Positions 1-32,065 of a DNA stretch of 32,065 nucleotides are shown piece after piece. Each line of letters opens with the position of its first letter. Position 1 is the stretch's first letter. Source of the DNA: a virus (taxonomy: Duplodnaviria > Caudoviricetes); IMG/VR virus record IMGVR_UViG_3300012940_000070, positions 1 to 32,065 of that record, one strand, 5' to 3'. A program made the translations under genes and the position numbers. The notes below the pieces were generated by a model. The model ran no database searches and was not told the DNA's origin. It saw nothing but the letters and a program-made list of their open reading frames with translations.

Positions 1-63
1 ACCAGAAGAGAAATTGGGATTTGCCGGTTTTACCGCCGGTGCGGTCAGGGGCGTATCAGCCAT
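1..63 (-). CDS. serC: Phosphoserine aminotransferase, 5' end (host gene, continues beyond window)
   Basis: Reverse strand from ATG at 63 reads MADTPLTAPAVKPANPNFSSG; the KPANPNFSSG motif is the typical N-terminus of alphaproteobacterial SerC; GGGAGG RBS upstream. Confidence 0.85.
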   Translation of the reverse strand, partial: MADTPLTAPAVKPANPNFSSG

Positions 64-112
64 GAGCGACCCTCCCAGGTCGAAAGTCTCACGTTAGGGT
101 GAGATGTCCTGA
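64..112 (-). ncRNA. serC leader cis-regulatory RNA
   Basis: Minus strand has hairpin TCTCAC-cctaac-GTGAGA then CGACCT-GGGA-GGGTCG, which sequesters the serC RBS; matches the described architecture of the alphaproteobacterial serC leader. Confidence 0.7.
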
Positions 113-117
113 GGCGG

Positions 118-4425: not shown

Positions 4426-5439
4426 CTAAACGAGCGAACGCGGCGTGCTTCCGCTTGATGATGTCGAGCGGTTGGACGATGGCGCGGATTTGTAGAGAGT
4501 GGCGCCGCCAGCGAGAGCGCGGCCGATAGCATCTTGTGTCATCGTGCCACCGAGAGCCGCATGGTTGGCGCGATAGACATCCATGTTTTGCCCCTCGTGA
4601 TATGTGTCTTCGAAGGCGCGAGAGCTCTCTGAACCGCGCCCCGAGTCGGGGCGCATGAGCGACATTAGCGAGGTGCCATTGCGATTGACGGCTGTTACTG
4701 GTGTTCCGCCAGCCACAATCCCTGGCACCGCCCGCGGCGCCTGCGGGATGTTCATCCCCATCAGCATCTTGCCAATGGCGGTGCGGCCCTGCAGGGAGCC
4801 CATGGCCTGCATGAGGCTCATCCCTGGATTGGCGCTTTCCATTTGCTTGATCGCGGGGGCCGCCTGCAGCTTGGCGTAGTCCACGGCGCCCAAGAGGCCA
4901 CCCGACAATCCGCCCCAAAGCGATCCCATCACACCGGGCGGCTTCTGACTGCTGGTAGCGGAGCCAATGGCACCAAGTGCAGGATTGTCCAGGTTGGATT
5001 GGTAGGCGCTGAGGAACGATCGATTACCGATCCCCTGCTCTATCCCGCCTGGAAGCGATGTCCACTGGTTGCGAAGCGATGATGGCACGCGGGATAGGTC
5101 GCCCGCCTCCAAGTCGTCCTGCAGGCTGCGTCCGGTGTCGCGTCGATACTCGTCTTTGGCTATCGCCCAGGCGACCGCATCTTGCGAAGCTGGCGTAAAA
5201 TCGGTGACACCGGCACGGGGAGCATAGTCGCCCCATGTGGATGCAAGTATCTGGTACTTGCCGGCCGCGCTCGATTTCTTCCCCGCGTTGGGACCGCTAG
5301 CAATGGTCACGTACTGACGGGGATGGTCGCTGAAATCGGTAATCCGATCCCCGCCATAGATCACATCATATGCGCCCTTGCTCTCGGGCCCGGCAATGGT
5401 GTCGAGGAGTGCGCGGGCTACCGCTGGCAATTCGGCCAT
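4426..5439 (-). CDS. Virion-associated peptidoglycan hydrolase (lambda R-like lysozyme domain) / ejection protein
   Basis: ALLDTIAGPES, YDVIYGG, SDHPR, SSAAGKYQ, NQWTSLPG motifs followed by Gly/Ala/Met-rich tail. Confidence 0.85.
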   Translation of the reverse strand: MAELPAVARALLDTIAGPESKGAYDVIYGGDRITDFSDHPRQYVTIASGPNAGKKSSAAGKYQILASTWGDYAPRAGVTDFTPASQDAVAWAIAKDEYRRDTGRSLQDDLEAGDLSRVPSSLRNQWTSLPGGIEQGIGNRSFLSAYQSNLDNPALGAIGSATSSQKPPGVMGSLWGGLSGGLLGAVDYAKLQAAPAIKQMESANPGMSLMQAMGSLQGRTAIGKMLMGMNIPQAPRAVPGIVAGGTPVTAVNRNGTSLMSLMRPDSGRGSESSRAFEDTYHEGQNMDVYRANHAALGGTMTQDAIGRALAGGATLYKSAPSSNRSTSSSGSTPRSLV

Positions 5440-6148: not shown

Positions 6149-7631
6149 AAATAGCGGCAGGGACCTTCGGCGCCTGTGATCCTTCCGCGGCGACGAGAGC
6201 CTGAGCCACCCTAGAAATGGTTGGGTTAGCTGCAAGAGATGCGCCACCATTGCGACCTAGCGCCGCCGCTAGGCGTGCGTTGTTCATCGTCATTGCCGTT
6301 GCGGCCTGCCTCGATGCGAGCCCGGTGCCCATCGCGCCAAGGCCGGCTATTGTGCCGACACCCGGGCCGCCCACAGCGTTGCCGACTGCAAATGGGACAC
6401 CAAACCCAGCACCCATGCTGACGACGCCAGTCGGGGCTAGCTTGCCGACATAACGAAGCGCATTCTCAATAGGGCCGCCACGTGCCACTTGCCGGATTGC
6501 GTCGATCTCGGCATCCGAGAATCCCTTTAGTTGCCCTTTGATTATCTGGCGATCGAGGTTGCGGAACTCAGTGCGCAACGCATTTTCAAAGCCGGAGCCG
6601 GAAAACTGCCCGGCCCTCGAACCGGCCAATTCAATGGCCTGCTCGATGAGTTCTCCCCTCTTGGCCTGAGCATAGAGACCACGAGCCGCCGCCAGTTCCG
6701 GGCCAGACTGCGCGAGGAAGTCATCGAACTTATCGATCATTATGGAGGCGATGCGCGATTGATCTGGATTGGTTGGGTCTTTTGCTGCCGCTGCCAGAAT
6801 GCGCCGCATGGTCTGGGCGTTATCCACTGTCATTCCATTGGCGCCAGATTCCTGCAACCGCTTAAGGGCCGCGGTGGCACCCGGATGCAATGTCTGGTCG
6901 ATACCTTCGGAAATCGCCGTGGCGGCGATGTCGTCGGCCACTTGTTTCACAGAGGACTGCGGGAACACATATCCCTTGGCCTTGGCCGCTTCATAGAGCT
7001 GGCCGGCCTGCGCCTTGAGTTCTTCAACGGTCGGGACAGCGCTTTGAGCAGACTTATTCGCGAGGGCTCCGGCAGCCCCGCCCATCACGCCTCCGGTAAG
7101 CCCACCAATGCCAGCACCCCACGCCGCCTGGTTAATTCTGTCCGGGGTGTCCTTTCCGTTCCCGAGGCCATGCAGCGCCCCATACGCGGCGCCTTCCAAG
7201 ACCCCTCGCCCGCCCATGGACAGAACAGTCGGCGCCGCGCCCTTCATAAGCGTAAGCCCGGCGCCAGAAAGCCCGAGCCCCGTGCCGATGCCGCCCGCGA
7301 TTTGCCCAACAGTTGCAGCCGTAGGATCTGCGGCTTGCGTGGCCTGGTCATAGCCGCGGCTCTTTTCAAGCGCTTGGTTGTAGGAGCGCCCGGGGTCGAA
7401 GCCTTTGCCCTGAAATGCGTCAATGGCCATTTCGATAGGCGTCATCATCCCAGCATTGATCTCGTCGCCGAAACCAAAGGTCATGCCCTGCATGGCACCA
7501 GTCTGGGCTGCCGCCATGGAATTGTTGAGGGCAGAGGGAAGCGAGCCGGAGCCACCAGCTACCGCCTTAGCCTTGGCCATCTTGGCCATTGCCTCTGCTT
7601 CGGCCCGCTTCTGCTCAATGGTTATTTCCAT
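6126..7631 (-). CDS. Putative DNA ejection (injection) protein
   Basis: Start MEITIEQ at 7631; QGMTFGFGDE motif; Gly/Ala-rich hydrophobic stretches typical of podovirus internal proteins. Confidence 0.75.
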   Translation of the reverse strand: MEITIEQKRAEAEAMAKMAKAKAVAGGSGSLPSALNNSMAAAQTGAMQGMTFGFGDEINAGMMTPIEMAIDAFQGKGFDPGRSYNQALEKSRGYDQATQAADPTAATVGQIAGGIGTGLGLSGAGLTLMKGAAPTVLSMGGRGVLEGAAYGALHGLGNGKDTPDRINQAAWGAGIGGLTGGVMGGAAGALANKSAQSAVPTVEELKAQAGQLYEAAKAKGYVFPQSSVKQVADDIAATAISEGIDQTLHPGATAALKRLQESGANGMTVDNAQTMRRILAAAAKDPTNPDQSRIASIMIDKFDDFLAQSGPELAAARGLYAQAKRGELIEQAIELAGSRAGQFSGSGFENALRTEFRNLDRQIIKGQLKGFSDAEIDAIRQVARGGPIENALRYVGKLAPTGVVSMGAGFGVPFAVGNAVGGPGVGTIAGLGAMGTGLASRQAATAMTMNNARLAAALGRNGGASLAANPTISRVAQALVAAEGSQAPKVPAAISRMLALD

Positions 7632-8917
7632 AGTGCGCGCTGCTCCGGGGTCATGAATTCCCACAGCTCGGGTTTCCCACCCCAGCCTTGTGGAGGCGCA
7701 GGGGCGGCCCATATGGCACTGTCTTCGGGGGCGTCTTTTTGCTTCCGCGTCGCCTCAAAGATGCGATCGCCAGCCTCCGGCCCGTTGACAATACGCAAGA
7801 GGGTTCGCTCGTAGTTGTCCAACTGCCTGCGGAAGTCTTCGGGTTTCGAGTTGGGGTCAATTGCGCCCGAGGCCGCGGCGAGCATGGCCCCTTCCTTTTC
7901 AGTCACGCTACCCAATGCACCGCCCGTTGGGCTTGCTTGACGCATCGCATTGAGGTTCTCGATGGTCGCATTTGCCGTCAGCACGCCAACCTGACGGCGC
8001 AGTTCGGCTGCATCGCTTTCAGAAAGATTGGAAGCGAGACCGCCAGCCAAACCGGTAGTGAAGGGCTTGTTTGCGATGTCACGGGCCAAGGCAGCAGCAT
8101 TCGTGATAGTGTCAGTTGCAATGGCGTTGCTATCTGCGCCCGCATTTGCCTTTGCGGCAGCGGCGGCCGCTTCCATTGCTGCTGGTGAGCCAGGAATAGC
8201 AGCGGCAGTCGGGAGCCCCGTGGCAGGATCGATTTTTGGTTTCCCGGTCGTGGGATCGAGTACATAGCCAAAATCGGTGCTGAGTTTGCCAAGGCCAGGT
8301 GCCCCGTCCCCAACCGTCACGTTCACGCCGCCACCGCCGACCTCATAGACGCGATTGTCCGGCCCCACTTGCCACGCCTTGTTTGGGTCAAGTCGATTGG
8401 CGGCCGCCTCCTCGGGGCTAAGCAACTTGAACCCCGGCTCGGCCTTTCCGAACTGGCCAAGCGTCTCAAAGCTGCCGGAGGTCTTGTCGGTGCGGATCAG
8501 GGAACCATCGGGAGCAAACGTGAACCCAAATTCTGGCGCCGCGGACTGATTGCGTTTGATCTGCTCCCCGATAAGCATCGAGGCAAGCTGCTGCTGGGCA
8601 TCGGAGGCCCACGGGTTGCCGAGCACGGACGAAAGATCGCCCATTGAGGCGTCGGAGCCGCCGGAAAGGATGCGGCCAAGTTCTGCATTGGCTTTGTCTC
8701 GGCCGCTGGCTGCGTCTTCCTGCGCCTTGCGGTACTGGAGGCCCCCAACAAGCGTATTGGCGAGCTGCGCAAGACCCTGCATCGGAGAACGGATATCTTG
8801 GACCCCCATATTCCCCTTGAGAAGGGCTTCGGCCATCAGGCGCCGCCTCTCTAGGTCTTGCGGAGTGTAAGAGCCGCTATCGTTTGGACCCACGATTTGT
8901 GGAAGCTGAAAGACCAT
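7622..8917 (-). CDS. Putative DNA ejection protein
   Basis: 431 aa; ERRRLMAEAL N-terminus, GALGSVTEKE motif; position in ejection cluster. Confidence 0.72.
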   Translation of the reverse strand: MVFQLPQIVGPNDSGSYTPQDLERRRLMAEALLKGNMGVQDIRSPMQGLAQLANTLVGGLQYRKAQEDAASGRDKANAELGRILSGGSDASMGDLSSVLGNPWASDAQQQLASMLIGEQIKRNQSAAPEFGFTFAPDGSLIRTDKTSGSFETLGQFGKAEPGFKLLSPEEAAANRLDPNKAWQVGPDNRVYEVGGGGVNVTVGDGAPGLGKLSTDFGYVLDPTTGKPKIDPATGLPTAAAIPGSPAAMEAAAAAAKANAGADSNAIATDTITNAAALARDIANKPFTTGLAGGLASNLSESDAAELRRQVGVLTANATIENLNAMRQASPTGGALGSVTEKEGAMLAAASGAIDPNSKPEDFRRQLDNYERTLLRIVNGPEAGDRIFEATRKQKDAPEDSAIWAAPAPPQGWGGKPELWEFMTPEQRALWK

Positions 8918-22596: not shown

Positions 22597-22625
22597 AAAA
22601 CAAAAAGGCCCGCCGAAGCGAGCCT
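22597..22625 (-). terminator. Terminator after the late regulator (tR'-like)
   Basis: AGGCTCGC-ttcg-GCGGGCCT followed by TTTTGTTTT on the minus strand. Confidence 0.8.
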
Positions 22626-23202
22626 ATCCCCCTGACGGACTTGTCAGGACCTTACGTTTCTCATCATTCGTGATTTGTTCTACCCCGTCAAGAGTCGGAT
22701 CGATCCGAAAGATGTTCATCAACAGGTCCAAGCCGCGCTTGGCTGGCGCAATGGCTGCATACTCCCCGCGGCACAGCGCGCGAGTGGCGTCATAGACATT
22801 GCGGCCGCCCTCGACCTTCAAAGCCTCATCCGTGGCGATGAACCGTGATTTGAAGGTGATGAGCTTGTCGTCATCCCAGCGCTCGGCGTCTTCTGTGCCG
22901 CCGATGCGGTCCAGGATGTGGGACGGAACCGTGCGGCGGACGCACAGCACCTTCCAGTCGTAGACCGCCAGCATTGAGCCGAAGGAAAGCCCCGCCTGAT
23001 ACTGCGCCGGAGTGATGTCTCCAAGGAAGTGGCGCCTGCCAAGCTCCCCGCTCAGCCGAGGATCGCCAGCGATCTCACGAAGCAGATCGCGGACCTTTGC
23101 CCACTTCGCTGCCCCGCTGTCAAAATCGCGGCGGTACTCCGCTGCCTTGATGCGCCCCGCCCTATCGCGAGAAACGTTTGAACGCCTAGTACGTCCTGCC
23201 AT
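22624..23202 (-). CDS. Putative late transcription regulator (Q-analog by position)
   Basis: Last early gene before promoter/terminators and packaging genes; basic N-terminus, ITPAQYQAG and GLDLL motifs. Confidence 0.6.
   Translation of the reverse strand: MAGRTRRSNVSRDRAGRIKAAEYRRDFDSGAAKWAKVRDLLREIAGDPRLSGELGRRHFLGDITPAQYQAGLSFGSMLAVYDWKVLCVRRTVPSHILDRIGGTEDAERWDDDKLITFKSRFIATDEALKVEGGRNVYDATRALCRGEYAAIAPAKRGLDLLMNIFRIDPTLDGVEQITNDEKRKVLTSPSGG
22663..22691 (-). promoter_or_regulatory. Putative late promoter overlapped by a LexA-like box
   Basis: TTGACG-N17-AATGAT; GAAC-aaatcac-GAAT at 22666-22680. Confidence 0.45.
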
Positions 23203-23205
23203 GCC

Positions 23206-23312
23206 AAAAATCCCCGTTGTTGCTCACAACGCGGACCTTGCCGACACATGGCCGGGGCAGAGATAGGTAGAACGGGTAAGGTGAGAATCGCTGATTTGCC
23301 GGTGGAAGGCAA
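23206..23312 (-). promoter_or_regulatory. Promoter and attenuator-like leader of the late regulator
   Basis: TTGCCT-N17-GATTCT (23312-23284); hairpin CCGCGTTGT-gagca-ACAACGGGG plus ATTTTT covers the RBS. Confidence 0.5.
23228..23276 (-). repeat. Copy A of a ~50-nt inverted repeat (partner 27175-27224)
   Basis: 43 identities in 52 hand-aligned columns, including a 20/21 core. Confidence 0.85.
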
Positions 23313-23329
23313 GAAAGGCGGGGAGTTAT

Positions 23330-23491
23330 TCACCACCACGCTACGAAAATACCAATCGTGAACCCGATCCCAGTTAGGCACCCGACCGCCATAACCATCT
23401 TCATCGCTATGGCTTGCATGACCACGGCGCGGCGCATTCCCATAATGCGTTCCGGAGGCAGGCTGAAGAAGTTGTGGGGATCAACGCTCAT
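23330..23491 (-). CDS. Small membrane protein
   Basis: ATG 23491 coupled (ATGA) to the upstream ORF; C-terminal TM. Confidence 0.5.
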   Translation of the reverse strand: MSVDPHNFFSLPPERIMGMRRAVVMQAIAMKMVMAVGCLTGIGFTIGIFVAWW

Positions 23492-23694
23492 CTGGTCTTC
23501 CCTTCTTGCTGGAGAGCTGAGCGGGCGATCCGGAACAGGACCGCTGGCATTAAAATGATGAACAACACCCAGTTCCATGGATACCACAACACTAACGCAG
23601 GGCGTGGTGATAGCCTTCTGGTTCCAGCGTAGAGGGCAAGCGGATGATCATCCCGCAGTAGAGAACCAAACCGACCAAAACGATATACCCTCAT
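23488..23694 (-). CDS. Small membrane protein
   Basis: AGGAAGG upstream; one hydrophobic helix. Confidence 0.5.
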   Translation of the reverse strand: MRVYRFGRFGSLLRDDHPLALYAGTRRLSPRPALVLWYPWNWVLFIILMPAVLFRIARSALQQEGKTR

Positions 23695-23737
23695 CTCACC
23701 CTTCCTTTCATCTCCAACTGCGAAAGACTGTGGTTGG

Positions 23738-24505
23738 TCACTGATGTTGCCTCATGATCGCTCTTCCTATCGCCTCTGGGATTTGAGGGATCACTGCGTT
23801 TCCGCACGCTTTAAGTCTGTCCACCCAGTTGGGAGGCCGGTCATCCATTCCGCGAAGCAAGGGTTGAGGAAAACGATCATCTCCACCAAAGGCAGAATGC
23901 GCGATGTCGAGCAGATGCGGCGCGCCACCCGGCCACCCTTGTCCAACCGCGCCAAGGTCGATGCCTTCGAGCAATCCTTCCATTCGCTGGCCGGCAGGGT
24001 AGGCAACAATCCATATTCTCTGCCGCGGCTGGGGGGCTCCAACGGCGGCGCCTGGTATAACCTTCCACTCCGCATCATACCCGATCGCGGCAAGGTCCCT
24101 GAGAACCCGCTCAAGTCCTGAGCGGAGAAGATCCCTGACGTTCTCGATGACCGCGTAGGATGGCCTGATTTCATCGATGAGGCGTAGATACTCCCCCCAT
24201 AGGCCGCTTCTGGCTCCGTCGAGCCCAGACCTGCTACCGTGGACGTTAGCGGCGATGCTGACATCCTGGCATGGGAACCCTCCACAGATGGCATCGACTG
24301 CAATTCCATCGGCAGCAAGTCGAGCTGCATTGAGTTCTCGGATGTCATGGTAGCAAGGCACCTCTGGCCAGTGTTTGTTGAGAACGCGGCGCGGGAATTC
24401 TTCGATCTCACAGAAAGCAACGGTCTTGAAGCCGCCACTCCGTTCCAGCCCGAGGCTGAAACCGCCAATACCGCTGAAGAGGTCGAGCAAACTTAGCTTG
24501 GTCAT
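23738..24505 (-). CDS. DNA (cytosine-5) methyltransferase, alpha chain
   Basis: Motif I DLFSGIGG, IV GGFPCQ, VI ENV, VIII PQPRQRIWIVA, X DRLKACGNAV; very short variable region. Confidence 0.92.
   Translation of the reverse strand: MTKLSLLDLFSGIGGFSLGLERSGGFKTVAFCEIEEFPRRVLNKHWPEVPCYHDIRELNAARLAADGIAVDAICGGFPCQDVSIAANVHGSRSGLDGARSGLWGEYLRLIDEIRPSYAVIENVRDLLRSGLERVLRDLAAIGYDAEWKVIPGAAVGAPQPRQRIWIVAYPAGQRMEGLLEGIDLGAVGQGWPGGAPHLLDIAHSAFGGDDRFPQPLLRGMDDRPPNWVDRLKACGNAVIPQIPEAIGRAIMRQHQ
23791..24348 (-). CDS. Overlapping alternate-frame ORF, putative beta chain of the C5 methyltransferase (start uncertain)
   Basis: Open frame inside the MTase with TLPRSGMMRSG, LLPTLPAS and LNPCFAEWMTGLPTGWTD motifs. 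Confidence 0.65.
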   Translation of the reverse strand: MTSENSMQLDLLPMELQSMPSVEGSHARMSASPLTSTVAGLGSTEPEAAYGGSIYASSMKSGHPTRSSRTSGIFSAQDLSGFSGTLPRSGMMRSGRLYQAPPLEPPSRGREYGLLPTLPASEWKDCSKASTLARLDKGGRVARRICSTSRILPLVEMIVFLNPCFAEWMTGLPTGWTDLKRAETQ

Positions 24506-25056
24506 GCTGCCGCCTCTCCCTCACGGTCGCCAACGGAGTAGCCGAGGCGTTCGCGCATGGCGTCCTCGTCGTTGTAGTCAACGAAGCGGGCATTCGCCTT
24601 CACCAGGCGGTCGTGCTTGCGCTTGGCTGCCGCGGCGTCTTCCGTCCGATGCTGCTCGGCGAAGTTGTTTACGAGGCCATTGACCATGGCTTTGACGCGG
24701 GCGCGGCTTTCGGGGGTCTTCTCGACATCGGGCGGCGGCAGCCGGGGATGCAGCGCCTTCTCTCGGGCCAGGCGGTCTGTGCGCCGTTCCATCGCTCGTC
24801 TGGTCGCGCTGGCCACAACTGGCGCAGGCGGAACGTAGGACGGGTTATGGCCTGGAACGGAACCGCTCAGGAGGTCCGCAATCCCAGCCTCGACATCCTG
24901 CGCCTCGTAGATCGAAACCGCCTCGAAGTAGACCTTAGCCTTGGCCAACCGCTCCCTCGCCAGGTCGCCGGGATCGGAGGAATGGTCACCCTGCTGATAG
25001 GTCCGGAATAGCCGGTCGAAGGCGTCCGCGATCCTCGTGTTCCTGTCCTGGGTCAT
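24502..25056 (-). CDS. Replication-associated protein (possible helicase loader by position)
   Basis: Follows the initiator; helical with YVPPAP motif; AGGA RBS. Confidence 0.6.
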   Translation of the reverse strand: MTQDRNTRIADAFDRLFRTYQQGDHSSDPGDLARERLAKAKVYFEAVSIYEAQDVEAGIADLLSGSVPGHNPSYVPPAPVVASATRRAMERRTDRLAREKALHPRLPPPDVEKTPESRARVKAMVNGLVNNFAEQHRTEDAAAAKRKHDRLVKANARFVDYNDEDAMRERLGYSVGDREGEAAA

Positions 25057-25765
25057 CCTGTGATTTCCTTGCGATGAAGGCGAAAACGTCTGCTTGGGAG
25101 GGAGCGCGTTGCGGAGGCGAACCTCGAGCGAAGCGCGACCGGTCGGCCAGCGCCTTGCGGCACCAGGTCATCCAGGTAAGGCCCCAGTCGAGCTTCACGC
25201 CCTTCTGGCCGGGCTGAGCTGGCCACCACTCGCGGAACTTCTGGGCTTCTAGATCGATGTCGGTTTGGGAAAGGCCGATTGATCTGGCGAACTCGACGTC
25301 CGGCTCCCAATCGGCTGGAAGCCTTGACCCGCGCTTTTTGGAAGAACCGTTAGGTTCTTCTTTTCTCACTTGTTGGTCTGGTATGATCTGCTTCGGATCG
25401 GCTGTAGCTTTTGCTACTGGAGCCTTTTGCAACTTCAAAGACTTAGCAGCGCCACCTTTTGCCCCAGCGGCGGCACGTTTTGCGCGCAATGCCCCTGCTT
25501 TTCCGAGCTCTGCGGTGATGCGCTTGTGCGTGATCTGCCCGTCTGCGACCTCGAAAAAGGCAGAGAGATCAGCCCAGATCGGACGCCACTTCTTGACCGA
25601 GACGCCGGCAATTCTGGCGAGCTTGCCTTCGTCAGATGGTAATCCACCACCGGCACTCCAAAGCCGCATTAGCAGCATGAAATAGGCGCCATGCTGCTCT
25701 AGCGTGAGATAGCCAGTGTCGCGCAGGTAGTCGCCTACATAGAGTGGGAGGTATGGTTCGCTCAC
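24986..25765 (-). CDS. Replication initiator, DUF1376/YdaU family with DnaT-like C-terminus
   Basis: PLYVGDYLRDT..L...HGAY..LL..LW...LP.D; RGSRLPADW; KLDW..TW..W. Confidence 0.85.
   Translation of the reverse strand: MSEPYLPLYVGDYLRDTGYLTLEQHGAYFMLLMRLWSAGGGLPSDEGKLARIAGVSVKKWRPIWADLSAFFEVADGQITHKRITAELGKAGALRAKRAAAGAKGGAAKSLKLQKAPVAKATADPKQIIPDQQVRKEEPNGSSKKRGSRLPADWEPDVEFARSIGLSQTDIDLEAQKFREWWPAQPGQKGVKLDWGLTWMTWCRKALADRSRFARGSPPQRAPSQADVFAFIARKSQDDPGQEHEDRGRLRPAIPDLSAG
25341..25483. other. Candidate replication origin inside the initiator gene
   Basis: CTTTTGC at 25408, 25424, 25456 and GTTTTGC at 25477; inverted repeat GAAGAACC/GGTTCTTC at 25341-25360; locally AT-richer. Confidence 0.4.
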
Positions 25766-26250
25766 TGTATGGCCCCCATAAACTCATCGGCTGTCAAAGC
25801 GCCTTTGAGGGCATTGCAGGTGGCACACGCAACGCAGAGGTTTTCGAGCTCGTGCCTGCCCCCGCGCGACCAAGGAAAGACGTGGTCGATCTGGAAAGGG
25901 CCTTCTTCGGTGCCGCAGTAGGTACACCTGTGGCCGTCGCGCTGATAGACAGCAGAGCGAAGGCGGCGAGGGATCGCGCGCTTACGGTCCAGCCCTTGAA
26001 CTCGCTCAAATGAGGCGTATCCGCTCGCGTCCACATCAAAGAGCGATAGGAGCCTGTCCCTACTCTCTTCCCACTGCTCAGGCGACAGGCGGGCGTACCG
26101 CTGAATAAGCCGCTCGTCATCGGGGAGGCCGCCGTCCTTCCAGTATCGCATGATGAGCAGCAGATACGCGCCATGCTCGCTCGCGGTCAGGTGCCCCGTG
26201 TCGGCCATGTAGTCATCGATGGAGAGGGGCATCCAGGCGCGGTTGCTCAT
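25762..26250 (-). CDS. DUF1376 N-domain fused to HNH endonuclease
   Basis: WMPL..DDY.ADT.HL...EHGAY N-terminus; RDGHRCTYCG...DHVFP.SRGG...NL..AC..CN..KG. Confidence 0.88.
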   Translation of the reverse strand: MSNRAWMPLSIDDYMADTGHLTASEHGAYLLLIMRYWKDGGLPDDERLIQRYARLSPEQWEESRDRLLSLFDVDASGYASFERVQGLDRKRAIPRRLRSAVYQRDGHRCTYCGTEEGPFQIDHVFPWSRGGRHELENLCVACATCNALKGALTADEFMGAIQ

Positions 26251-26558
26251 GACTGCACCCACACCATCCGGCGCCCGGCTCTACCGCTGCCCCCGTCGAT
26301 GCGAAGCCCGACCGACTGCAACTTTGGCCGGAGCCGGGCGATGAGCCCGTTCACTGAGCTTTCCGCAGTATCAGGGCCGCCGTTGGGGTCATCGGCATAG
26401 ACTGAGTTCACAATGTCTGCAGTCTGGACCCAAGCGCCGAAATGCCTCGCGAAGTAATCGAAGATGCGCCGCTCGGTCGGCGTCACCGCGATATATTCAA
26501 CCAACACTCGTGGATTCAGATCACGGCTCGTCGCGCCGCAGCATGGGCATGTGGTCAT
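26247..26558 (-). CDS. Winged-helix DNA-binding protein (OmpR C-terminal-like) with CPCC motif
   Basis: TPTERRIF...VY.DDPNGGP...V...IARLR.KL. Confidence 0.75.
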   Translation of the reverse strand: MTTCPCCGATSRDLNPRVLVEYIAVTPTERRIFDYFARHFGAWVQTADIVNSVYADDPNGGPDTAESSVNGLIARLRPKLQSVGLRIDGGSGRAGRRMVWVQS

Positions 26559-26977
26559 GACGCCACCCCAGCGCGCAGTCGTTCTTCGTGCCGCCTAATC
26601 GCATGGATGACCGTTGTGTGGTCCCGACCACCAAGCCGGTGACCGATCTGGCTGGTGGTTAGCTGCGTCTCCCGGCGCATGCGCCAAGCCGCCTCCTGCC
26701 GGGCGACATAGGCCGGCTTGTCGCGCCGATGGCTCTGGATATCGATGACCGAGACGCCGTGCTTAAGTGCCACCTGTTCGAGAATGGCCTTGTAGTGCGG
26801 ATCCGGCATTTTCCTTACCGGCGTTGAAGCAAGGAACAGGAAGTCCCTCACTCGTATCTTCCGCGGCTTGGGTAGAAGGATTGGCGTCTTGGGGGCCGCG
26901 CTTGGCCTTCCGTTGAGCCTCTGGCGGACTGCAGCGTAGTGAGCAGCTTGCCCAGCAGCGGTCGAAAGATCGATCAT
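26555..26977 (-). CDS. DnaA C-terminal HTH domain protein
   Basis: ARQEA...QIG..LGGRDHTTVIHAIR is the DnaA domain IV signature. Confidence 0.88.
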   Translation of the reverse strand: MIDLSTAAGQAAHYAAVRQRLNGRPSAAPKTPILLPKPRKIRVRDFLFLASTPVRKMPDPHYKAILEQVALKHGVSVIDIQSHRRDKPAYVARQEAAWRMRRETQLTTSQIGHRLGGRDHTTVIHAIRRHEERLRAGVAS

Positions 26978-27135
26978 TGCTTGCCCTCCCTCCGCTCGCG
27001 CTCAAGATTGGCGTGGAGTGCAATTGACCGCTTGATGCGCAAGCGCTCCTGGGGCCCGTGCTTGTCGCGAACCGCCTTCGGCAACTTGATGTTCTCGGGA
27101 CGAAATCCCTTATGCCCCGCCAATGCGTTGCCCAT
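26974..27135 (-). CDS. Small basic hypothetical protein (53 aa, not in ORF track)
   Basis: GAGGG RBS; MGNALAGHKGF...; ATGA coupling to the DnaA-HTH gene. Confidence 0.5.
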   Translation of the reverse strand: MGNALAGHKGFRPENIKLPKAVRDKHGPQERLRIKRSIALHANLERERREGKQ

Positions 27136-27174
27136 GGTCTACCCTCTGTGGTTTTCCGACCGGAGATAGAAAGG

Positions 27175-27224
27175 CCCGTTCTGCCTATCTCTGCCGCCGG
27201 TACGATGTGCGGCTAGGCCGCGTT
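27175..27224 (+). repeat. Copy B of the ~50-nt inverted repeat (partner 23228-23276)
   Basis: CCCGTTCTGCCTATCTCTGCC...ATGTGCGGCTAGGCCGCGTT matches the reverse complement of copy A; intergenic. Confidence 0.85.
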
Positions 27225-27232
27225 AATTTCAG

Positions 27233-27685
27233 TCAGTCTCGATTTCCCGAGCTGCGGCGCGAAGCGCTTCCGTTCGATCGATTTCCATCTGAGCCTTGGC
27301 GCCATGACGCTCCGCCGCCTGTCGCCATCGTGTCGCTAGCCAACGCCGCCATGACAAAGGCAAGCTGTGCTTCAAGCTCAGCAACACGCTTCGCCAAGGC
27401 CCGATCTGCTTCCTCACGGGCTTTCTCCTCTTCTGCGCCGATAAGCGATTTGATCGCTTCAACCTCTTGCTGGCGAGGCGAAAGAGATTCCTCGCCGTCC
27501 CAATAGGATCGGACGCGCCGTACTTTCATGTTCAGCAGCGAGGCGATTTTCGCCTTGCGCCATTCGTGGTTCATCGTTGGCCAGCGCTTCACGGCATAAG
27601 CGCGAAGGTCCTCAGCAAGAGCAGCGGTCACGTCGCGCTCCTTTTTGGCAAACTTTGACAACTGGTTGGCATCCCTTCGGTGCAT
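27233..27685 (-). CDS. Putative regulatory protein (CII-like position; HTH-like plus coiled coil)
   Basis: IASLLNMKVRRVRSYW followed by RVAELEAQL. Confidence 0.6.
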   Translation of the reverse strand: MHRRDANQLSKFAKKERDVTAALAEDLRAYAVKRWPTMNHEWRKAKIASLLNMKVRRVRSYWDGEESLSPRQQEVEAIKSLIGAEEEKAREEADRALAKRVAELEAQLAFVMAALASDTMATGGGASWRQGSDGNRSNGSASRRSSGNRD

Positions 27686-29073: not shown

Positions 29074-29535
29074 CTAGGCCGCCCTCACAACGAAAGCAGG
29101 CCCATCAGTTCTAACCTGTTCAATTCTCGCGAGCGTTTCGTCGTTGAGGTTAAACCACTCTCCAGATCGCCTGTGGTCGGCGAAGCACGCGTGGTACCAG
29201 CCTTCAAGTGCGAAGATCCCCGGAAAGCTAAGAAGAAGCTCAGCCGGCTCACCAACGATGGAGGACAGCGTTTTCATCCGTTGACCAACGCAACCGCTGA
29301 TGCCGATCTTGAGGAGCCCTGCCCCACGAAAGGCGACAAAATAGACCGACAAATCGCGCTCGGCTTGCTCGGCCGCCCGGACCTTCAATCCAAGCAGCGT
29401 CTTATCCACTCCGGCCTCAACTGCTTCCGCATAAACTTCGCGGATGTCGGCCTTGATCGCCCTCTCCTCTTCCTTGAGGCGAAGGATGCGATCAACGAAC
29501 GAGGCGATCTGGTCTTCGGCTACGCTCTCGGTCAT
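29074..29535 (-). CDS. GapR/DUF2312 N-domain fused to GIY-YIG (T5orf172-like) nuclease domain
   Basis: VAEDQIASFVDRILRLKEEERAIKADIREVYAEA...G.D then VYFV...KIGIS...R..L...E...H..F...R..GEWF. Confidence 0.82.
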   Translation of the reverse strand: MTESVAEDQIASFVDRILRLKEEERAIKADIREVYAEAVEAGVDKTLLGLKVRAAEQAERDLSVYFVAFRGAGLLKIGISGCVGQRMKTLSSIVGEPAELLLSFPGIFALEGWYHACFADHRRSGEWFNLNDETLARIEQVRTDGPAFVVRAA

Positions 29536-29717
29536 GCTGCGGCCTCGGTCTTGGCGGCCGCCAACATTCCCATAAGCTTACGAGCTGGTCCGGACGGGCG
29601 GCTCTTCCGGGTTTCCCAGTTCGATACCGTCCCCTGGTCAACTCCAAAGCGCCCAGCGAACTCTGCCTGCGTTTCACCCAGATGCTCGCGAAGAGCTTTG
29701 ACATCGATCTCGGACAT
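29532..29717 (-). CDS. cro: Cro-like XRE HTH repressor
   Basis: LREHLGETQAEFAGRFGVDQGTVSNWE; divergent from cI. Confidence 0.88.
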   Translation of the reverse strand: MSEIDVKALREHLGETQAEFAGRFGVDQGTVSNWETRKSRPSGPARKLMGMLAAAKTEAAA

Positions 29718-29723
29718 TGCATG

Positions 29724-29752
29724 ATTATGGGAAACTCATAACTCAATGTCAA
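29724..29752 (-). promoter_or_regulatory. PR-like early promoter (leaderless cro mRNA)
   Basis: TTGACA-N17-CATAAT; predicted +1 falls at the cro ATG. Confidence 0.75.
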
Positions 29753-29786
29753 TGAGTTTCTCATAATGATTTCTGGCAAACTCATA
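29726..29786. promoter_or_regulatory. Three OR-like operators
   Basis: TATGGGAAACTCATA (29726), AATGAGTTTCTCATA (29751), TCTGGCAAACTCATA (29772); consensus TATGAG-N3-CTCATA. Confidence 0.8.
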
Positions 29787-29789
29787 GTC

Positions 29790-30461
29790 ATGAGCGAATT
29801 GTCAGATCGTCTTATGAAGGCGCGTATTTACGCTGGGTTCTTAACGGTCCAGGAGGCCGTTGACGCCCTTGGTGTGAAATACCCCACCTACGCAGGGCAT
29901 GAGAACGGCGCTTCTGGATTCAAGGCGCCAACCGGCGAAGTCTACGCCAAGAAGTTCAAGGTCAATTTCGATTGGCTAATGACTGGGCGCGGCCCAATGG
30001 TTCCGGATGGCGAAAGAACCGTCCCAATCGTCGGCTACGCTGGCGCAGGGCCAGACGGATCGGTACTATACGCCGAAGGGGACGGGAATTTTGGAGAAAC
30101 GATCGCCCCAATAGACGCGCCAGATACAACGGAAGCGCTGGAGGTAAGGGGGAACTCCATGCATGGCCTGGCGAATGATGGATGGCTGCTCTTCTACGAT
30201 GACAAAACAGCTCCGGCATCCGAGCACATGGGGGAGCCGTGTGTTTGCTGGTTGTCAGATGGTCGTGTGCTTGTGAAGATTCCTCAGCCCACAAGAGATC
30301 CAGGGCTGTTCCATCTTGAAAGCGTGAATGCCCCGACCATGAGAGATATTCCGGTCGACGCGATGGCGTTGATTACTGATATCAAGACCCGCGCTGCAGC
30401 AAAGCGTTACATCCGCCGGCATCCCAATATCCCCATTGCCGACGTCGTGGTGTCTCGATGA
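29790..30461 (+). CDS. cI: CI repressor (XRE HTH plus S24 peptidase)
   Basis: HTH ending DWLMTGRG; VPIVGYAGAG cleavage region, catalytic VRGNSM and LVK. Confidence 0.92.
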   Translation: MSELSDRLMKARIYAGFLTVQEAVDALGVKYPTYAGHENGASGFKAPTGEVYAKKFKVNFDWLMTGRGPMVPDGERTVPIVGYAGAGPDGSVLYAEGDGNFGETIAPIDAPDTTEALEVRGNSMHGLANDGWLLFYDDKTAPASEHMGEPCVCWLSDGRVLVKIPQPTRDPGLFHLESVNAPTMRDIPVDAMALITDIKTRAAAKRYIRRHPNIPIADVVVSR

Positions 30462-31556: not shown

Positions 31557-32065
31557 TGGCTAAGAAGACCAAGACCACCGATGTCCAAACCGGACCCGTC
31601 ATCGCCTACAAGGGCTTTGACAAAAATCTGGTCTGCAACCCTAGCGGAACGCCGTTCCAGTTCGAGCTTGGCAAGACATATTCGGTAGATGGCGAGGTTC
31701 GTGCGTGCCGTAACGGCTTTCACGCCTGCGAGCACCCCACATCGGTACTGCAGTACTATCCAGCGATCGACGGTACTCGGTACTGCCAGGTCGAATTGTC
31801 AGGCGACCTAGACGTTGATGGCGACAAAACCGCCGCACGCACTATCAAGGTCGTTCGCGAGCTCTCGTTGACCGAACTAATCAACGAGGCTGTCGCATTC
31901 ACGGTCGCGCGCGCCAAAATCGAGGAAGGCGCCACCGCATCTGGCACTCGGGGCGCGGCCACCGCATCTGGCTATCAGGGCGCGGCCACCGCATCTGGCG
32001 ATCAGGGCGCGGCCACCGCATCTGGCTATCAGGGCGCGGCCACCGCATCTGGCTATCAGGGCGCG
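31553..32065 (+). CDS. Phage early protein (AYKGFD...GFHAC domain) with 9-aa repeats, truncated by window
   Basis: MAKKTK...IAYKGFDKNLVC...FQFELGKTY...CRNGFHACEHP...YYP then (GAATASGYQ)n; ATGA coupling. Confidence 0.82.
   Translation, partial: MMAKKTKTTDVQTGPVIAYKGFDKNLVCNPSGTPFQFELGKTYSVDGEVRACRNGFHACEHPTSVLQYYPAIDGTRYCQVELSGDLDVDGDKTAARTIKVVRELSLTELINEAVAFTVARAKIEEGATASGTRGAATASGYQGAATASGDQGAATASGYQGAATASGYQGA
31931..32065 (+). repeat. 27-bp in-frame tandem repeat, at least 5 units
   Basis: GCCACCGCATCTGGC-N6-GGCGCG at 31931, 31958, 31985, 32012, 32039. Confidence 0.95.

Follow-up and report, generated by a model that had tools for sequence, protein, structure and literature searches.

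C4 RNA of P1 shuts antirepressor genes by pairing with the early transcript, and T-box leaders and HK022 put are further parallels for the kind of control considered here. CI RNA of P4 is likewise described as a small phage RNA that pairs with sites in the early transcript and shuts the replication genes in the lysogen, being processed from the transcript it controls and pairing with seqA and seqC on either side (PMC4825925). In the same account, IsrK of Gifsy-1 is a prophage RNA with a terminated short form and a read-through isoform; its trans pairing opens a ribosome-binding site (RBS) upstream in a cascade to a Q-like antiterminator. What IsrK activates is the long form of itself, and AntQ follows two steps later. 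Prematurely terminated leaders reused in trans are represented by rnTrpL of an alphaproteobacterium (PMC6614838) and StxS of a lambdoid prophage (PMC7547250), whose targets, as far as these sources describe them, exert no feedback on the producing attenuator. RNA-OUT and RNA-IN of IS10 (PMC4737173) are cis-encoded and fully complementary, begin pairing between a loop and a 5' tail, and repress translation, while OOP and aQ of lambda (PMC12197685) are described as cis-encoded from opposite-strand promoters, each with its own target, at the junction of cII and the replication genes and at the 5' end of Q. Finally, the synthetic small transcription activating RNAs (STARs; PMC5648800) act on an unpaired linear region upstream of an intrinsic terminator, which the activator complements together with the 5' half of the hairpin, removing the latter. 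The present analysis deals with the 32,065-nucleotide (nt) virus record IMGVR_UViG_3300012940_000070 (Duplodnaviria; Caudoviricetes) of a lambdoid temperate phage, called the window in its full length, in which two intergenic segments of about 50 nt are inverted copies of each other: segment A in the leader of a putative late regulator gene, and segment B in the early operon.

The match between A and B is not due to chance. The initial annotation had aligned A (minus strand, 23276-23228) with B (plus strand, 27175-27224) by hand at 43 identities in 52 columns and had placed both between genes; the alignment was re-found, and both segments are indeed intergenic. Self-BLAST of the window returned the pair as the best inverted match, with 44/52 identities (one gap moved) and an E value of 1.6e-4. 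When 2548 stretches of 70 nt from both strands, A's own surroundings left out, were ranked as partners of the leader's first 52 nt, the top place went to B with −78.3 kcal/mol, followed by −56.7 kcal/mol for the next non-overlapping stretch, the mean being −32.1 and the standard deviation 6.0. Across the seven pairs considered below, the alignments hold 42-45 identities in 49-52 columns. Sequence, conservation and layout are observations, and all folding effects reported here are predictions. The pair is genuine and conserved, its structural features fit together, and it is a candidate for an attenuator that is activated by RNA in nature and may also have a feedback arm. The account judged most likely, at somewhat better than even odds, is that hairpin B of the early RNA would pair with leader A and switch on the putative late regulator, with spare leader setting the threshold.

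Relatives were collected by scans of viral contigs and metagenomes; with the window's own counted and duplicates removed, they amount to seven distinct A contexts and seven distinct B sequences. Among the sequencing runs listed with these sequences, a look for RNA data sets turned up none. Two records (L097, L098) proved to be the window itself and six (L086, L089, L090, L092, L093 and L096) repeat sequences already counted, and these were excluded; a 20-nt match in Streptosporangium from the GTDB scan (L014) was dropped as chance, and a metagenome match (L091) as being without context. Complementarity of A and B in related phages, for which the initial annotation had called, was found in all four records long enough for both segments, at spacings of 3898, 3688, 2801 and 2975 nt, with different genes in between and the segments always in the same orientation. 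This last observation bears on the idea that A and B are recombination sites inverting 23277-27174, which is considered extremely improbable: the inverted-repeat geometry and a tyrosine recombinase in each relative would suit it, but that recombinase is the sole one and lies within 3 kb of the record start, as an integrase would, an integrase-like gene being present in three close relatives. Moreover, a serine resolvase/invertase domain (PF00239) is missing from all three of these relatives (88-98% complete), the arms differ by indels, which repeated inversion would homogenise, and no inversion joint occurs in the DNA contigs, which drop rare forms.

The surroundings of the two segments vary considerably. 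The leader precedes a NusG-like gene in locus L002 (PF02357, E 4.6e-5; UpxY, E 4e-4, far below the cut-off), a family of 193-196 amino acids in L003, L012, L013 and L088, and the window's type of protein in the window and L095; thus it stands before two very distantly related families and one unrelated family, and the sequence upstream of A also differs among relatives. B, in turn, is preceded by three different upstream sequences, L012 and L087 differing there from the window. Since leader and B are kept beside differing genes, the conservation of both elements is independent of their neighbours.

Segment A (minus strand, 23228..23276) corresponds to positions +2..+50 of a leader whose predicted promoter, P_A (minus strand, 23284..23312), consists of TTGCCT (23312-23307), a 17-nt spacer and GATTCT (23289-23284), with +1 near 23277. 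These elements, as well as the hairpin with its U-run (23239-23206), are present as first described. A small consensus scan listed the terminator of the leader and not P_A, and the support for the promoter is comparative: TTG-N17/18-(GATTCT or CAGAAT) is kept in all seven variants within three unrelated upstream contexts, which argues for a promoter with +1 near 23277. The conserved block of A starts at -1/+1 of this promoter, complementarity to B setting in at +2. From -1 onwards the leader is invariant except at +43, +62 and +73; the first of these columns is bulged in the A:B duplex and the other two lie outside it, and an additional contig variant at +29 (single contig, depth 6) turns a pair into G-U in the sense duplex. 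The predicted fold of the 72-nt leader comprises a 22-nt unpaired 5' tail (+1..+22), a small hairpin and a terminator-like stem followed by five U (minus strand, 23206..23239), whose 5' arm belongs to A and whose 3' arm is the RBS (GGGGA) of a 192-amino-acid open reading frame (ORF; minus strand, 22624..23202), the one that occupies the late-regulator position. According to folding predictions the tail is unpaired with a probability of 0.74-0.99 during and after synthesis, and the terminator forms with a pair probability of 0.99 in six of the seven leaders, in the read-through context as well.

A point absent from the initial annotation is that a single predicted minus-strand transcript also contains both A and B, namely that of the P_R-like early promoter (TTGACA-17-CATAAT; minus strand, 29724..29752), which agrees with the consensus in 11 of 12 positions, overlaps the repressor operators and is the predicted source of B RNA; pairing in cis is therefore possible. 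On such an account B would pair with nascent A 3-4 kb downstream and antiterminate over that distance, so that the late gene would be entered only by polymerases that had started at P_R, the P_A RNA being a by-product or decoy. A consensus scan of the minus strand from P_R to A lists only two terminator-like sites, one at 25704 and the other that of the leader itself, the terminator forms in the read-through context just mentioned, and a tether would presumably ease timing. The complementarity ends, however, at the predicted +1 of P_A, which indicates a free 5' end as the partner; furthermore, the toehold becomes less accessible in three of the seven variants (0.28-0.44 versus 0.98) once 120 nt of upstream RNA are included, and spacing and intervening genes vary freely. 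Pairing in cis is accordingly considered a genuine rival, although an unlikely one.

On the early RNA, segment B (minus strand, 27175..27224) is complementary to leader positions +2..+50 and is predicted to fold into two hairpins. Hairpin 1 (minus strand, 27209..27221) has a stem of 5 bp, complements the 5' arm of the leader terminator and is invariant in all seven variants, as is the whole 20-nt 5' block of B facing that arm. Hairpin 2 (minus strand, 27159..27201) is an irregular stem bearing the 7-nt loop AGAACGG (27182-27176), closed by GGC/GCC in all seven variants; its variable 3' arm holds the anti-Shine-Dalgarno (anti-SD) sequence of a 53-amino-acid small ORF (minus strand, 26974..27135). 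The loop and leader +3..+9 (CCGUUCU) are exactly complementary, and both partners are predicted to be unpaired, the loop with a probability of 0.93-1.0. The small ORF overlaps the next start codon with its stop and heads an overlapping chain of replication-region genes, six further ones following, that extends to 23738. As a separate observation, the two unrelated small ORFs found behind B share their first ten bases (27135-27126, minus strand), which may mark the edge of a recombined stretch or an additional RNA element.

In four loci the A-complementary blocks of B vary at 2 of 41 columns, as against 78 of 450 in the adjacent coding sequence (Fisher p 0.044), and its 3' arm varies at 8 of 10 columns (p 3e-6 relative to the blocks); both p values are optimistic, because the blocks were picked once the alignment had been seen, 7-10 nt of variable sequence in the middle were omitted and the sequences are related. 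The changes in the 3' arm preserve the stem, 2 of 16 pairs being changed on both sides, and conservation in B sets in at the final A-pairing base. This pattern may be set against the view that an inverted duplication left the similarity behind as a neutral relic, or that a DNA site bound by a protein occurs twice, each copy being conserved for a local role. Such a history would fit a narrow clade of close relatives without compensation between A and B, and the intramolecular structure of each copy could explain part of the conservation. Nevertheless, it is precisely the loop and linker bases, unpaired in B alone, that are invariant, and the paired 3' arm that is not; the boundaries coincide with the +1 and with the terminator arm; and a gapped, non-palindromic match of 50 bp is unlike an operator. 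Taken together, a remnant or DNA site is held to be quite improbable.

Seven pairs were cofolded, L085 and L087 with the leader of the window and L094 with that of L095, giving energies of −31 to −37 kcal/mol and a duplex of 42-45 bp with helices of at most 10-13 bp, four interruptions being common to all seven. In the presence of B, the terminator pair probability falls from 0.99 to 0.01-0.18 in six of the seven pairs. Opening of the late RBS is predicted to become cheaper in all seven, in the window by about 11 kcal/mol (from 14.7 to 3.8), and opening of the small-ORF RBS to become dearer, likewise in all seven, by 0.8-4.9 kcal/mol (2.0 in the window), because the released arm of B pairs with the Shine-Dalgarno (SD) sequence. 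As for the RNA switch proposed in the initial annotation, its pairing is thus backed by conservation, boundaries, loop-tail match and folding, and late activation comes out as a strong predicted effect, the repression of the early operon being the weaker part.

The latter effect would be the central one if the terminated leader were an immunity-type antisense RNA that opens B, so that the anti-SD closes the small-ORF RBS with polarity on the replication genes, in the manner of P4 CI or P1 C4, the late gene being controlled otherwise. This one-way repression is consistent with the higher cost of opening the small-ORF RBS in all seven pairs, with anti-SD and SD sequences that vary together across the variants, with the position of the small ORF, overlapping the next gene, at the head of the chain, and with the lack of an operator at P_A. 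Yet the effect is small, duplex helices of the length given above would suit protection from cleavage rather than destruction, and above all the account leaves unexplained the invariant 20-nt 5' block of B, which is not needed to open hairpin 2. It is chiefly on account of this invariant block opposite the terminator arm that activation is ranked above one-way repression, which is deemed rather unlikely.

For the activating scheme the following sequence of events can be envisaged. Repressor-type operator repeats are confined to 29727, 29752, 31093 and 31127, i.e. to the two early promoters, for which reason P_A is probably active in the lysogen; it would make terminated leader RNA, whose terminator hairpin, folded over the RBS, would hold the putative late regulator off. 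The unpaired 5' end of the leader (CCGUUCU) would dock in the 7-nt loop of B, and the complex would then zip to the interrupted duplex of 42-45 bp, in which the terminator's 5' arm is covered. If the leader is nascent or has been read through, such pairing would stop termination, free the RBS, or both. Terminated leader RNA would meanwhile soak up low levels of B, and the anti-SD arm released from B would probably dampen the small ORF at the head of the coupled replication genes. Upon induction or infection, RNA from P_R would exceed the leader pool, and the late regulator would be turned on after a threshold delay. A stronger version, put forward tentatively, is a mutual RNA toggle in which the early-mRNA hairpin would antiterminate the late leader as a natural STAR and the terminated leader would shut the replication genes through the same duplex, giving a lysis-lysogeny timing switch free of protein; conceivably, such a toggle would do the job of the N-to-Q relay of lambda and plug into unrelated late regulators.

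Several points weigh against activation of the leader by B, among them the polarity of the mismatches. The caveat of the initial annotation that two transitions give G-U pairs only between plus-strand RNAs is correct for the window; among the pairs as a whole, three or four transitions are of this kind, one of them fixed in all seven, two give G-U pairs for the mRNA-sense pair, and the overall polarity is mixed. Plus-strand duplexes are stronger by 0.8-13 kcal/mol in all seven cases, and RNAalifold does not prefer either strand for B (−18.6 versus −18.4). Several of the bases adverse for sense pairing are paired inside B's own hairpin, yet the caveat holds. Compensatory covariation, a further check named at the outset, is not visible: none of the changes between A and B in the variants is two-sided, A being too invariant, with three alleles only. 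The terminator carries just five U, and control may therefore be mainly translational. In the L095 allele the terminator pair probability is 0.15 with or without B; the terminator is predicted not to form, the RBS being taken up by pairing with the 5' tail. Furthermore, a nascent 72-nt leader could by our own estimate be caught in trans for roughly one second, a figure drawn from elongation rates, equilibrium folding taking no account of timing. The protein side adds two points, in that the 192-amino-acid protein has no Pfam, PHROG or NCBIfam match and a model of the L012 family (pLDDT 79) has no significant match among solved structures. To these comes the absence of the pair from 50 of 50 other late-gene loci, described below, according to which it is either young or narrow.

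The strand question has its own counterpart in the proposal that plus-strand antisense RNAs, OOP-like at B and aQ-like at A, are the real molecules and that the similarity reflects a shared target or mutual pairing. Their positions would resemble lambda oop and paQ as described in PMC12197685, and the better duplex energies and the larger number of G-U transitions on the plus strand speak for them. On the other hand, a sigma-70 scan found no promoter-like site upstream of either segment (activator-dependent promoters can escape such a scan), the would-be promoter sequences differ among relatives, given unrelated late genes and two small-ORF types, and the leader hairpins contain three G-U pairs when read as sense RNA and none when read as plus-strand RNA. 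Such antisense RNAs are regarded as very improbable, and activation of leader A by hairpin B is retained as the working account.

The function of the 192-amino-acid ORF is assigned from its position, a NusG-like gene occupying the same place in L002. A predicted late promoter (minus strand, 22663..22691) lies inside the 3' end of the ORF and is followed by an intrinsic terminator (minus strand, 22606..22625), a similar hairpin being found in L001, L002, L003, L012 and L088; this order of promoter and terminator is the pR'/tR' layout of lambda. On account of this layout and of the NusG-like gene in L002, the gene is likely a late regulator. Against the L012 family the protein shows a distant hhalign match (E 0.001, probability 21%), its single-sequence model is unusable (pLDDT 42), and the structure comparisons of the L012-family model reach a Z of only about 4, with sigma region 4 chains among them; an Atlas look-up led to unnamed viral clusters and to a lead to DUF6456 below threshold.

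How widely the pair occurs was examined in 60 loci with late genes of these families, of which 4 were too short and 56 were screened. Four of these contain the pair, and two contain A with less than 2 kb of upstream sequence; the remaining 50 have neither the leader nor an inverted match above 42, where shuffled sequences reached 46. A G-U-aware scan of 40 loci placed the four loci of the clade on top (z −4.5 to −5.0), and the loci next inspected (L031, L041, L032 and L052; z −3.8 to −4.3) were not accepted as analogues. A covariance model of B detected no diverged copy in 73 sources, and INPHARED phages and PLSDB plasmids gave no match to A, B or the neighbouring 184-amino-acid protein. In the data reached, the pair is thus that of a narrow clade. 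Some features of the screened loci may be recorded for their own sake. In L041, a G-U-rich complement of about 25 bp (about 6300-6335 versus 7965-7992) lies 1.7 kb upstream of the late gene and would cover its RBS, a single case (z −4.0) that may be chance. In L017 (7871-8000), where the late gene belongs to the L012 family, a separate promoter-like site and a hairpin burying the RBS are also seen, the hairpin differing in sequence from that of A; no partner for it was found within 8 kb. A 16-nt motif upstream of the late gene is common to L032 (6331), L043 (7960), L048 (7632) and L049 (3630), with no complement at the same locus.

The region of P_A shows further particularities. The -10 element contains GANTC (window 23285-23289, minus strand) in all seven variants, including L002, L003, L012, L013, L088 and L095, in two forms, that of the window fitting the GcrA motif YGAKTCK; P_A may sense CcrM methylation and hence DNA replication. 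Activation by GcrA is doubtful, as sites of this type are rare at the -10 position according to PMC4647560. P_A (23312-23292) and the late promoter (22691-22671) both read TTG-N12-AAATCA, one of only three such matches in the window each, and the AAATCA-type spacer motif recurs in the two promoters of most relatives, whatever the regulator family. The heptamer GTGAATA (window 23330-23324, minus strand) lies 14-15 nt upstream of the -35 element in six of the seven variants (window, L002, L003, L013, L088 and L095) and in two unrelated contexts; in some of the variants at least, the ORF upstream has its stop codon within this heptamer. The L095 leader (4689-4761) is a natural +43 allele in which the terminator is predicted to be swapped for a fold of the 5' tail over the RBS. 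An alphaproteobacterial SOS box and an RNase P-type substrate were both considered by eye at A and B and were not supported.

The remainder of the window is in keeping with a lambdoid temperate phage, with an early operon on the minus strand that includes a cro-like gene, followed by terminase, portal and capsid genes (window profile searches). The CI-like repressor (plus strand, 29766..30461; PHROG 4, E 1e-21) has a weak S24 peptidase domain (PF00717, E 1.4e-4, below the cut-off). The cro-like helix-turn-helix gene (minus strand, 29532..29717; HTH_3, E 9e-8) is the first of the early operon, and a 150-amino-acid ORF (minus strand, 27233..27685), with phrog_26665 (function not annotated) as its sole match, stands in the cII position directly upstream of B. 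Profile matches in the replication region comprise DnaA_C, DUF1376, HNH and a C5-methylase; two neighbouring DUF1376 genes (24986-26262, minus strand), the first with an HNH fusion, recur in the same arrangement in L012 and L085. With regard to the host, the best named homologues of the neighbouring 184-amino-acid protein come from Paradevosia and Devosia. The depletion of GANTC (29 sites seen versus 76 expected, 2.6-fold), together with a host-type serC leader at 62-114 (minus strand), at the left end of the window, fits an alphaproteobacterial host. The position of this leader also suggests that the prophage boundary adjoins serC, and at the opposite end (31931-32065) a 27-bp tandem repeat, probably coding, runs off the contig.

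The initial annotation had not recognised this arrangement from described phages, and none was found in the open-access literature, taken without supplements; older subscription papers could hold one. The A/B pair is a member of none of the systems compared, as it has no Rfam match, is not cis-encoded and is not processed between flanking targets. In Rfam, for which C4-type families (C4, c4-2 and c4-a1b1) are listed in PMC2864571, no family matched either segment of the window at E ≤ 1, and none did so at gathering score in seven related loci. Like P4 CI as described in PMC4825925, the terminated leader would be a small phage RNA pairing with the early transcript ahead of replication genes; unlike P4 CI, A RNA has its own distant predicted promoter, is the leader of another gene and has a single target 2.8-3.9 kb away. 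A second target was found neither among the 2548 stretches nor in three whole relatives, the latter search being of low sensitivity and missing B in two of them. The same two map positions as those of OOP and aQ (PMC12197685) are occupied, but here the positions complement each other. With IsrK (PMC4825925) the locus shares a terminated short RNA, a predicted read-through form and RBS opening in trans on the way to a late regulator; as far as IsrK is described there, the difference is that here a separate early RNA is predicted to act directly at the leader of the regulator. To the reuse of terminated leaders known for rnTrpL (PMC6614838) and StxS (PMC7547250), a feedback on the producing attenuator would be added.

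From IS10 (PMC4737173) the pair recalls the initiation between a loop and a 5' tail, a 7-nt loop here facing leader +3..+9, and it differs in that A and B are 3-4 kb apart, incompletely complementary and predicted to activate. In geometry the pair also resembles the STARs (PMC5648800), since B covers leader +2..+50 as an activator covers a STAR target: the leader is predicted to offer an unpaired linear region upstream of an intrinsic terminator, and in six of the seven pairs B is predicted to complement this region together with the 5' half of the hairpin and to remove the latter. Unlike STARs, A and B occur in nature, the activating part is folded and lies within a long early mRNA, the duplex is imperfect, the leader hairpin also hides the RBS, and the leader may act back on its activator. 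Late-gene timing is poorly described for alphaproteobacterial temperate phages without a recognisable N protein, and the locus, whose parts are short (72 and about 80 nt), would be a small system in which to study how two RNAs titrating each other set a threshold; the leader module, found before unrelated regulators, may for that reason be a portable genetic part. If the proposal is true, the locus holds a naturally occurring form of an RNA switch that has mostly been known from synthetic biology, and, should B activate the leader, the intergenic hairpin of one mRNA would license another transcript, as the natural counterpart of a STAR.

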